Shown here one piece after another: positions 22,520-22,647 of a DNA stretch of 64,000 nucleotides. Made by a program: the position numbers and the translations under genes. The stretch lies in the NCBI RefSeq assembly GCF_056712565.1, contig NZ_CM160072.1. One strand, given 5' to 3'. The notes below the pieces were generated by a model. That model did not search any database and had not been told where the DNA came from. It saw only the letters and a program-made list of their open reading frames with translations. Numbering within the stretch: the stretch's first letter is position 1; each line of letters starts with the position of its first letter.

Positions 22520-22623
22520 TACGAATAAGCACTGTGTATTCATTCCAACGAGTGAATACACGGAGCAATGTCGCTCGTAACTAAACAGGAGCCGACTTGT
22601 TCTGATTATTGGAAATCTTCTTT

Positions 22624-22647
22624 GCCCTCCAGTGTGAGGGCTTTTTT
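22624..22647 (+). terminator. tL1-like rho-independent terminator
   Basis: GCCCTC-CAGTGT-GAGGGC followed by TTTTTT. Confidence 0.65.

Follow-up and report, generated by a model that had tools for sequence, protein, structure and literature searches.

Introduction

Several described systems come close to the element analysed here. DicF, encoded in the dicB operon of the Qin prophage, is, like the lambda sRNA PreS, an Hfq-dependent prophage sRNA that lies within an early operon, depends on processing and a terminator, and acts on an essential host target, which is ftsZ for DicF and dnaN for PreS. The two share no sequence similarity, and their effects are opposite, repression of the target by DicF and activation of dnaN by PreS. 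The nucleases acting on DicF are RNase E and RNase III, and Faubladier et al. (1990) reportedly found that the latter makes one of its ends. CpxQ and SroC, Hfq-dependent sRNAs derived from 3'-UTRs, resemble PreS in sharing the terminator of the upstream mRNA and in having a 5' end made by endonucleolytic cleavage, as would be the case for PreS; PreS differs from them in the stable, structure-conserved hairpin at its 5' end and in its parent transcript, which is an antiterminated polycistronic phage operon. Lambda sib, which lies downstream of int and overlaps the tI terminator, is cut by RNase III as a long, imperfect hairpin of two helical turns. The idea of a retroregulatory element in the original prediction for this DNA amounts to an analogy with sib, a hairpin downstream of a gene in the pL transcript that possibly controls the stability of the upstream mRNA; the stem of the hairpin studied here is 11-14 bp long. 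Lastly, the GenBank record of phage Sf6 labels a 113-nt stretch 'bsq4; boundary sequence'; this is the same stretch as the one studied here, with hairpin, PreS and part of the terminator, and the label describes a mosaic junction at the DNA level and predates knowledge of the RNA functions.

PreS itself was found by RIL-seq during lambda infection as an Hfq-enriched sRNA between ral and ea10, first called LPR1 (Silverman et al., bioRxiv 10.1101/2024.10.31.621285). According to the preprint, its 3' end is the terminator tL2a, it gives northern bands of ~88 and ~68 nt, the longer form being processed to the shorter, and it is found in the lytic cycle only, from 10 min post induction, being absent in lysogens (bioRxiv 2024.10.31.621285). 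The same source reports that PreS opens the dnaN ribosome-binding site and so increases dnaN translation, and that it represses alaS, both with compensatory mutants; deletion of the seed or of the whole sRNA lowered lambda DNA replication and reduced spontaneous release 2-4-fold, in an Hfq-dependent manner.

Results and Discussion

A copy of PreS in the pL operon

The DNA analysed is a 64,000-nt stretch of assembly GCF_056712565.1 (contig NZ_CM160072.1), hereafter the window, whose + strand carries the early-left (pL) operon of a lambdoid prophage. Its relevant features are the following, in window coordinates:

20569-21219, + strand layout: cI-like repressor gene
21312-21340, + strand layout: pL-like site
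between the pL-like site and the 156-aa ORF, + strand: N-like antiterminator gene (phrog_271)
22049-22519, + strand: 156-aa ORF, function unassigned (phrog_1636; homologous to HK97 gp45 and 933W L0079)
22523-22532, + strand: GAATAAGCAC, a conserved leader motif bounding the mobile module on the left, found before all five hairpin types described below
22532-22563, + strand: type A hairpin, a 14-bp stem with two U.G pairs and a CAAC loop (12-bp core 22534-22561)
22563-22647, + strand: PreS (LPR1) small RNA gene, 85 nt, E. coli-type allele
22598-22615, + strand: PreS seed TGTTCTGATTATTGGAA(A), defined by the seed-deletion primers P970/P971
22598-22624, + strand: PreS positions 36-62, which are complementary to the leader of E. 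coli dnaN (RNAduplex)
22602-22604 and 22612-22614, + strand: bases CTG changed in LPR1-M1 and GAA changed in LPR1-M2 (primers P838/P839 and P888/P889)
22624-22647, + strand: intrinsic terminator (terminator scan), lambda tL2a homologue and candidate Hfq-binding 3' module of PreS
22714-22884, + strand: cIII (phrog_550), 3' of the PreS module

The segment 22532-22647 is very probably the PreS (LPR1) module of a lambdoid prophage pL operon, placed between the N-like gene plus the 156-aa ORF and cIII. The original prediction had read two separate cis-acting elements here, a hairpin and a terminator, and had missed that the terminator and the ~60 nt before it correspond to the trans-acting, Hfq-dependent sRNA PreS/LPR1. 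The location is that expected of such a module, on the pL-sense strand, downstream of the N-like gene and upstream of cIII, and positions 22530-22641 show zero differences to the lambda ral-ea10 intergenic region, HK97 and 933W (alignment A1). The bounds of LPR1, GAGCAATGTCGCTCGTAACT ... CCTCCAGTGTGAGGGCGATTTTTTA, are set by the cloning and in vitro transcription primers P810, P1103, P1107 and P1104/P1108 (Silverman et al., Table S5). These primers put the LPR1 +1 at GAGCAATGTCGC, which is position 22563 of the window, and the numbering of the alaS pairing (LPR1 42-56) agrees with it. From the +1 (GAGCAAUG...) to the end of the terminator stem, the 79 nt of PreS body plus stem are identical to lambda, in support of homology. 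This copy, the only one in the window, is the same as that of HK97 and differs from lambda by only 2 nt, at the junction of stem and U-tract, which reads GGGC-TTTTTT here (85 nt) and GGGC-GA-TTTTTT in lambda (87 nt); apart from this junction the published primers for the +1, the seed, M1, M2 and the 3' end all map without mismatch. The seed is intact, since the 18 nt removed in lpr1-delta-seed are unchanged, as are the CUG of M1 and the GAA of M2.

A 271-nt query that includes the module is found at 100% identity in many E. coli chromosomes, e.g. those of ATCC 11775, S88 and APEC O1, and has a match in 2247 of the 5426 complete E. coli genomes (~40%). Table S4 of the preprint uses E. coli strain APEC O1 to represent the carriers of LPR1 in this species (Silverman et al., bioRxiv 2024.10.31.621285), and over the 271 nt the window is 100% identical to this strain. 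Because the locus matches both the published PreS and its listed carrier, the element was already known; PreS as found here is thus described, and the structure-conserved hairpin and the divergent alleles presented below are modest additions to it.

Compared with lambda, the window has PreS in the same operon (pL, downstream of N) with the same terminator, and the flanks differ. Upstream, ral is replaced by the 156-aa phrog_1636 ORF. Downstream, cIII follows directly, ea10/ssb and tL2b being absent: in 22648-22713 the window lacks lambda ea10/ssb and the tL2b hairpin, and the lambda cIII leader stands directly after the tL2a U-tract, including the cIII-leader hairpin AACGCTTCACTCGAGGCGTT (22662-22681), which matches the lambda ea10-cIII gap exactly. 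The start of the cIII leader right at the end of the U-tract indicates a mosaic joint exactly at the terminator end.

The terminator

The terminator consists of the stem-loop GCCCTC-CAGTGT-GAGGGC (22624-22641) followed by TTTTTT (22642-22647), that is, 6 bp of stem, 5 of them GC pairs, around a 6-nt loop, with a T6 tract behind, features that fit both tL2a and an Hfq-binding 3' module. Its stem-loop sequence is the same as in lambda tL2a, from which it differs by the 2 nt immediately 3' of the stem, and judged by its sequence it is homologous to lambda tL2a. Among related loci the stem is kept and the loop bases vary. The HK97 record labels the same terminator 'putative', the Sf6 record 'homology to phage lambda; tL2A', and the preprint gives tL2a as the 3' end of LPR1 (Silverman et al., bioRxiv 2024.10.31.621285). 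The call of a canonical terminator made in the original prediction is therefore correct, and the gap between hairpin and terminator, which had been put at ~55 nt, is actually 62 nt. RNA polymerase modified by N, which in this prophage is of the phage-21/933W type, should read through tL2a, and PreS may arise in part by termination and in part by 3' trimming.

Folding of the hairpin

In the hairpin, the 5' arm GTGTATTCATTC (22534-22545) and the 3' arm GAGTGAATACAC (22550-22561) enclose the loop CAAC (22546-22549), forming a 12-bp core that includes one G.U pair, T22543.G22552; the outer pairs T22533.G22562 and C22532-G22563 lengthen it to 14 bp. The 9-bp stem predicted earlier at about 22541-22568 does exist as a hairpin, with a real stem of 12-14 bp lying ~7 nt further left, and this misplacement is why the start given earlier, 22538, trims the first stem bases. 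The lack of a U-tract after it was correctly noted. The hairpin is not among the 25 longest inverted repeats of the window (34 pairs in all), its arms being short, and folding statistics were used in place of that listing. The 32-nt hairpin folds at -17.7 kcal/mol, a value equalled by only 20 of 31,984 sampled 32-nt windows from both strands of the 64 kb, and for the 141-nt region the folding energy is -46.3 kcal/mol (z = -4.58), which none of 200 shuffles matched. RNA folding, which had been suggested as a check, thus favours the predicted structure. In the precursor fold, hairpin and PreS are independent domains. A 6-nt complementarity between the hairpin loop and the PreS seed (UUCCAA / UUGGAA) was dismissed as chance-level.

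Conservation of the hairpin structure

Related loci were sampled from IMG/VR with four exact-pattern scans. A hairpin lies directly upstream of PreS in all 304 of the 304 loci anchored on the PreS 5' end, and it occurs with five unrelated stem sequences, all perfect or near-perfect and 11-14 bp long:

type A stem: CUGUGUAUUCAUUC/GAGUGAAUACACGG
type B stem: UAUAGCAGAUU/AGUCUGCUAUG, with a variant B' in which one A:U pair is turned into U:A
type C stem: UAAUGACCAUU/AGUGGUCAUUG
type D stem: UUAAUGCGGAUUC..
type E stem: UUAUCGACUUUC/GAGAGUCGAUAG

In an alignment of 19 sequences with gaps in the loop only (alignment A2), 91.5% of cells pair, compared with 63.7% in shuffles (0/500 as high) and 29-47% in slid registers. 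Nine of the 14 pairs change on both sides (68 cells), and the covariation score is 0.638 against 0.158, a value that none of 500 shuffles reached. Such compensatory changes across homologues are those of a conserved RNA secondary structure, and covariation together with pairing above shuffles indicates that the RNA structure is selected. The closing pair C22532-G22563 is invariant, G22563 being the nominal +1 of PreS. A U.G pair at alignment columns 21/30 is present in 18 of the 19 sequences; as such pairs are valid on the pL-sense RNA only, they argue against a palindrome acting at the DNA level. The earlier idea of the hairpin as an RNA-level element gains support from both the covariation and the sense-only G.U pairs.

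The association with PreS is tight, since PreS follows the type A hairpin in 175 of 176 loci and the type B hairpin in ~99 of 112. PreS is replaced or deleted in 14 loci that still have the hairpin, 13 of type B and one of type A. Three of the type-B loci (L308, L311 and L317) retain the hairpin plus 8-12 nt from the start of PreS (GAGCAAT[ATCGC]), the rest having given way to a protein-coding gene, and the type-A locus L253 keeps the hairpin and the PreS start, the rest being deleted down to the cIII ribosome-binding site. These four loci show that the hairpin can outlast the sRNA. Duplications were also seen: L188 has two matches on a single viral contig, and L016 has two hairpin-PreS matches ~1.4 kb apart, one of type A with a normal terminator and the other of type B with its terminator replaced by unrelated sequence.

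Edges of the module

About 27 different sequence contexts precede the module and about 21 follow it. In 150 of 237 short-type loci, an upstream ORF of 40 aa or more ends with the TAA within GAATAAGCAC; these ORFs belong to at least 8 unrelated families, all ending with Glu-stop (GAA TAA) inside the motif. The recombination joints therefore coincide exactly with the ends of genes, 4-6 nt ahead of the hairpin. In the window the upstream ORF ends 4 nt earlier, with the TAG at 22517-22519.

Complementarity to dnaN and divergent alleles

The dnaA-dnaN junction sequence was taken from the primers of the preprint. PreS 1-62 pairs with it at -35.5 kcal/mol (RNAduplex), an energy that none of 500 shuffles reached, and the complementarity expected of a dnaN-targeting sRNA is accordingly present; the window PreS matches lambda PreS in its complementarity to the leaders of dnaN and alaS. 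The dnaN leader is present in 5416 of the 5426 complete E. coli genomes.

Divergent PreS alleles, 102-116 nt long, occur in P22-like Salmonella phages and in other contigs, with type B-E hairpins before them and different terminators after them. Such PreS-like alleles were found in:

L128, 670-806 (Salmonella phage g341c)
L149
L315
L316
L331

Most of them share a GUUCUGRUUA core, which L331 lacks. The preprint's conservation survey used a cut-off of at least 92% identity and may for this reason have left out divergent alleles. Duplexes of the divergent alleles were computed against the E. coli dnaN leader. A 103-nt Salmonella-type allele reached -38.6 kcal/mol (0/500 shuffles as low), and four more gave -33.6 to -38.9 kcal/mol as raw energies, the shuffle controls covering the window copy and the 103-nt allele. 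The complementarity of the divergent Salmonella-phage alleles to the E. coli dnaN leader suggests that the target may be conserved.

The probe sequences for lambda LPR2 and 6S RNA have no match in the window at up to 3 mismatches; with the LPR2 probe absent, the 'sponge' partner proposed for PreS in lambda was not found in the window. In a perfect 11-bp hairpin at 47496-47521, AAACAGGAGCC-atca-GGCTCCTGTTT, the 5' arm repeats the sequence of PreS positions 21-31, so that the 3' arm is complementary to PreS. This PreS-like arm is probably a coincidence, ~2 such 11-mer matches being expected in 64 kb.

Origin of the PreS 5' end

The full-deletion primer P969 of the preprint ends ...GAGTGAATACACG (bioRxiv 2024.10.31.621285), which means that the hairpin was kept in the authors' deletion and lies outside their sRNA. 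The available main text of the preprint makes no statement on an LPR1 promoter or nuclease, gives no 5'-end mapping and assigns no role to the hairpin, and the main text and supplementary material accessible to us hold nothing on processing at the hairpin. A 5' end at the hairpin base thus rests on the +1 chosen by the authors. Literature beyond the preprint and a review yielded no later version of the PreS study with biogenesis data, and the accessible text of Tree et al. 2014, on EcOnc sRNAs of EHEC prophages, does not mention the locus.

A promoter scan predicted no sigma-70-like site in 22400-22600, the sequence upstream of the +1 is unconserved, and expression tracks derepression of pL, which together make a dedicated PreS promoter unlikely; the PreS 5' end is for this reason most likely made by an endonuclease that cuts at the hairpin foot. 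We favour, purely as an inferred role, that the hairpin is a processing boundary that would also act as a 3' cap for the upstream mRNA and isolate PreS. The AU-rich character of its stems, compared with the GC-rich ones of typical exonuclease barriers, counts against the cap part of this reading. That the hairpin affects how stable the upstream mRNA is, as in the original prediction, is plausible.

More broadly, we tentatively propose, at rather less than an even chance of being right in full, that there is a broad multi-allelic PreS family, spread over lambdoid and P22-like phages of E. coli and Salmonella, in which the hairpin is selected for its structure and dedicated to sRNA biogenesis. 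According to this, a stem of 11-14 bp and of any sequence, fused to the first base of PreS, would determine where a nuclease cuts to form the 5' end, perhaps by serving RNase III as a minimal substrate, and would cap the upstream mRNA, while the alleles of 85-116 nt would all keep their complementarity to the dnaN leader.

Alternative explanations

The hairpin could instead be a PreS-independent 3'-UTR stabiliser or intercistronic stem-loop that travels with PreS only through a shared mosaic junction, an explanation that we find doubtful and still worth serious consideration. It accounts for the position of the hairpin 4-6 nt past the stop codon of many unrelated ORFs and for its retention where PreS was deleted (L253) or replaced by a coding gene (L308, L311 and L317); the 14 loci with a hairpin and no PreS fit a PreS-independent role as well as they fit the boundary and cap role. 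It is harder to reconcile with the fact that the upstream genes vary while PreS remains constant, in the proportions given above for types A and B, which links the hairpin to PreS and not to any upstream gene, and with the first base of PreS lying in the closing pair of every variant. This explanation overlaps our best one, the sole difference being the dependence on PreS.

A second alternative makes the hairpin an RNase III site, either a sib-like retroregulator or the maker of the PreS 5' end. Both arms would be cut near the stem base, leaving PreS with a 5'-monophosphate and the upstream mRNA without a protective 3' structure. In every hairpin type the nominal +1 (G22563) lies in the last stem pair, at a distance of 13-14 nt from the loop, as would suit a double-strand-specific nuclease, which cuts within a helix, and the near-perfect duplexes of 11-14 bp keep their length whatever their sequence. 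Classical E. coli RNase III substrates, however, span about two helical turns, ~20 bp or two stacked helices, often with internal loops, and 11-14 bp is at the lower limit for cleavage by this enzyme; measured by that generally held standard, the stems of all five types fall short of two turns. In addition, column pair 11/40 is mostly mismatched in types B-E (14 of 19 sequences), which would put the +1 in a frayed or single-stranded 2-nt linker and not in a duplex, and the accessible parts of the preprint hold no RNase III data. We therefore regard an RNase III site as unlikely.

That the DNA of the hairpin is a promoter or operator, with a PreS promoter overlapping it, is very improbable. The +1 of the authors is a G and thus a possible start base, and nothing else was found in its favour. 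Besides the negative promoter scan, the 30 bp before the +1 are wholly different among types A-E, and LPR1 is absent in lysogens and appears with derepression of pL (bioRxiv 2024.10.31.621285). A promoter inside the hairpin was likewise rejected, as the five stem types have no shared sequence.

We give equally little credence to a DNA-level 'boundary sequence', that is, a recombination hotspot between mosaic modules in which the palindrome has no RNA function. The 'bsq4; boundary sequence' annotation of the 113-nt region in Sf6 and the many different genes on either side of the module speak for it. Against it, RNA functions of PreS have been demonstrated (bioRxiv 2024.10.31.621285), the pairing survives complete stem swaps, each U.G pair would turn into a C.A mismatch in a DNA cruciform or on the opposite strand, and homology needed for recombination would keep sequence, not structure.

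Lastly, a small protein encoded by the 31-codon ORF at 22568-22663, whose AUG lies inside GAGCAAUG and has a GGAG 2 nt before it, is scarcely credible, since this spacing is too short for a Shine-Dalgarno sequence, the AUG is not conserved (AUA or AUU in Salmonella-type alleles) and the frame crosses the terminator into non-homologous flanks.

Proposed sequence of events

Under our preferred reading of the hairpin as a processing boundary, events in this prophage may be reconstructed as follows, the steps shown in lambda being carried over by sequence identity. Inactivation of the repressor would allow transcription from pL through N and the 156-aa ORF into the module; in lambda, LPR1 was shown to appear in the lytic cycle only. 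The 3' end of the sRNA would form at tL2a, and the GC stem and U-tail would sit on the proximal face of Hfq. That face is the binding site indicated by general knowledge of sRNAs and by the AlphaFold model of the preprint. In lambda, Hfq enrichment and the 3' end at tL2a were both shown (bioRxiv 2024.10.31.621285). The 5' end would arise by endonucleolytic processing, with no need for an own promoter, giving an RNA of ~85-88 nt that starts at G22563, and a second cut within the AU-rich AACUAAAC, ~20 nt downstream, may produce the more abundant form of ~65-68 nt; two bands were shown in lambda. The seed-containing stretch 22598-22624 would then pair with the dnaN leader and open its ribosome-binding site, leading to more beta-clamp, and alaS would be repressed. 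The outcome, as shown in lambda, would be increased phage DNA replication and a 2-4-fold increase in spontaneous phage release. The hairpin itself would remain outside the mature sRNA; an RNA element selected for its structure and joined to the 5' end of PreS, it would mark the processing boundary. After the cut it could be retained at the 3' terminus of the upstream mRNA, where its stem-loop would keep out 3'-to-5' exonucleases, and it could also fold the variable upstream sequence away from PreS.

Annotation and biological meaning

Rfam gave no match at gathering thresholds over the whole window, and a permissive Rfam scan of 21200-23200 returned chance-level hits only (E > 1), including RyhB at E = 8.7 over the terminator; as no curated Rfam 15 model matched, PreS appears to be absent from Rfam 15. 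The RefSeq/PGAP annotation of the corresponding region (NZ_CP033092.2, 1526985-1527178) has no RNA feature between the two flanking CDSs. PreS copies are thus left unlabelled by RefSeq and Rfam 15, in spite of the ~40% of complete E. coli genomes that match the 271-nt query, and a covariance model of hairpin plus PreS could close this gap.

The original prediction came upon lambda tL2a again and, unrecognised, upon the gene for PreS, a recently described route by which a phage obtains more of the host beta-clamp for its own replication. The covarying hairpin, which the available text of the preprint does not discuss, offers a handle on how PreS is excised from the pL transcript. Furthermore, the dnaN complementarity kept in divergent alleles of Salmonella phages suggests a conserved target and, if our proposal is true, hijacking of the beta-clamp would be a general strategy of temperate enterobacterial phages, beyond lambda.
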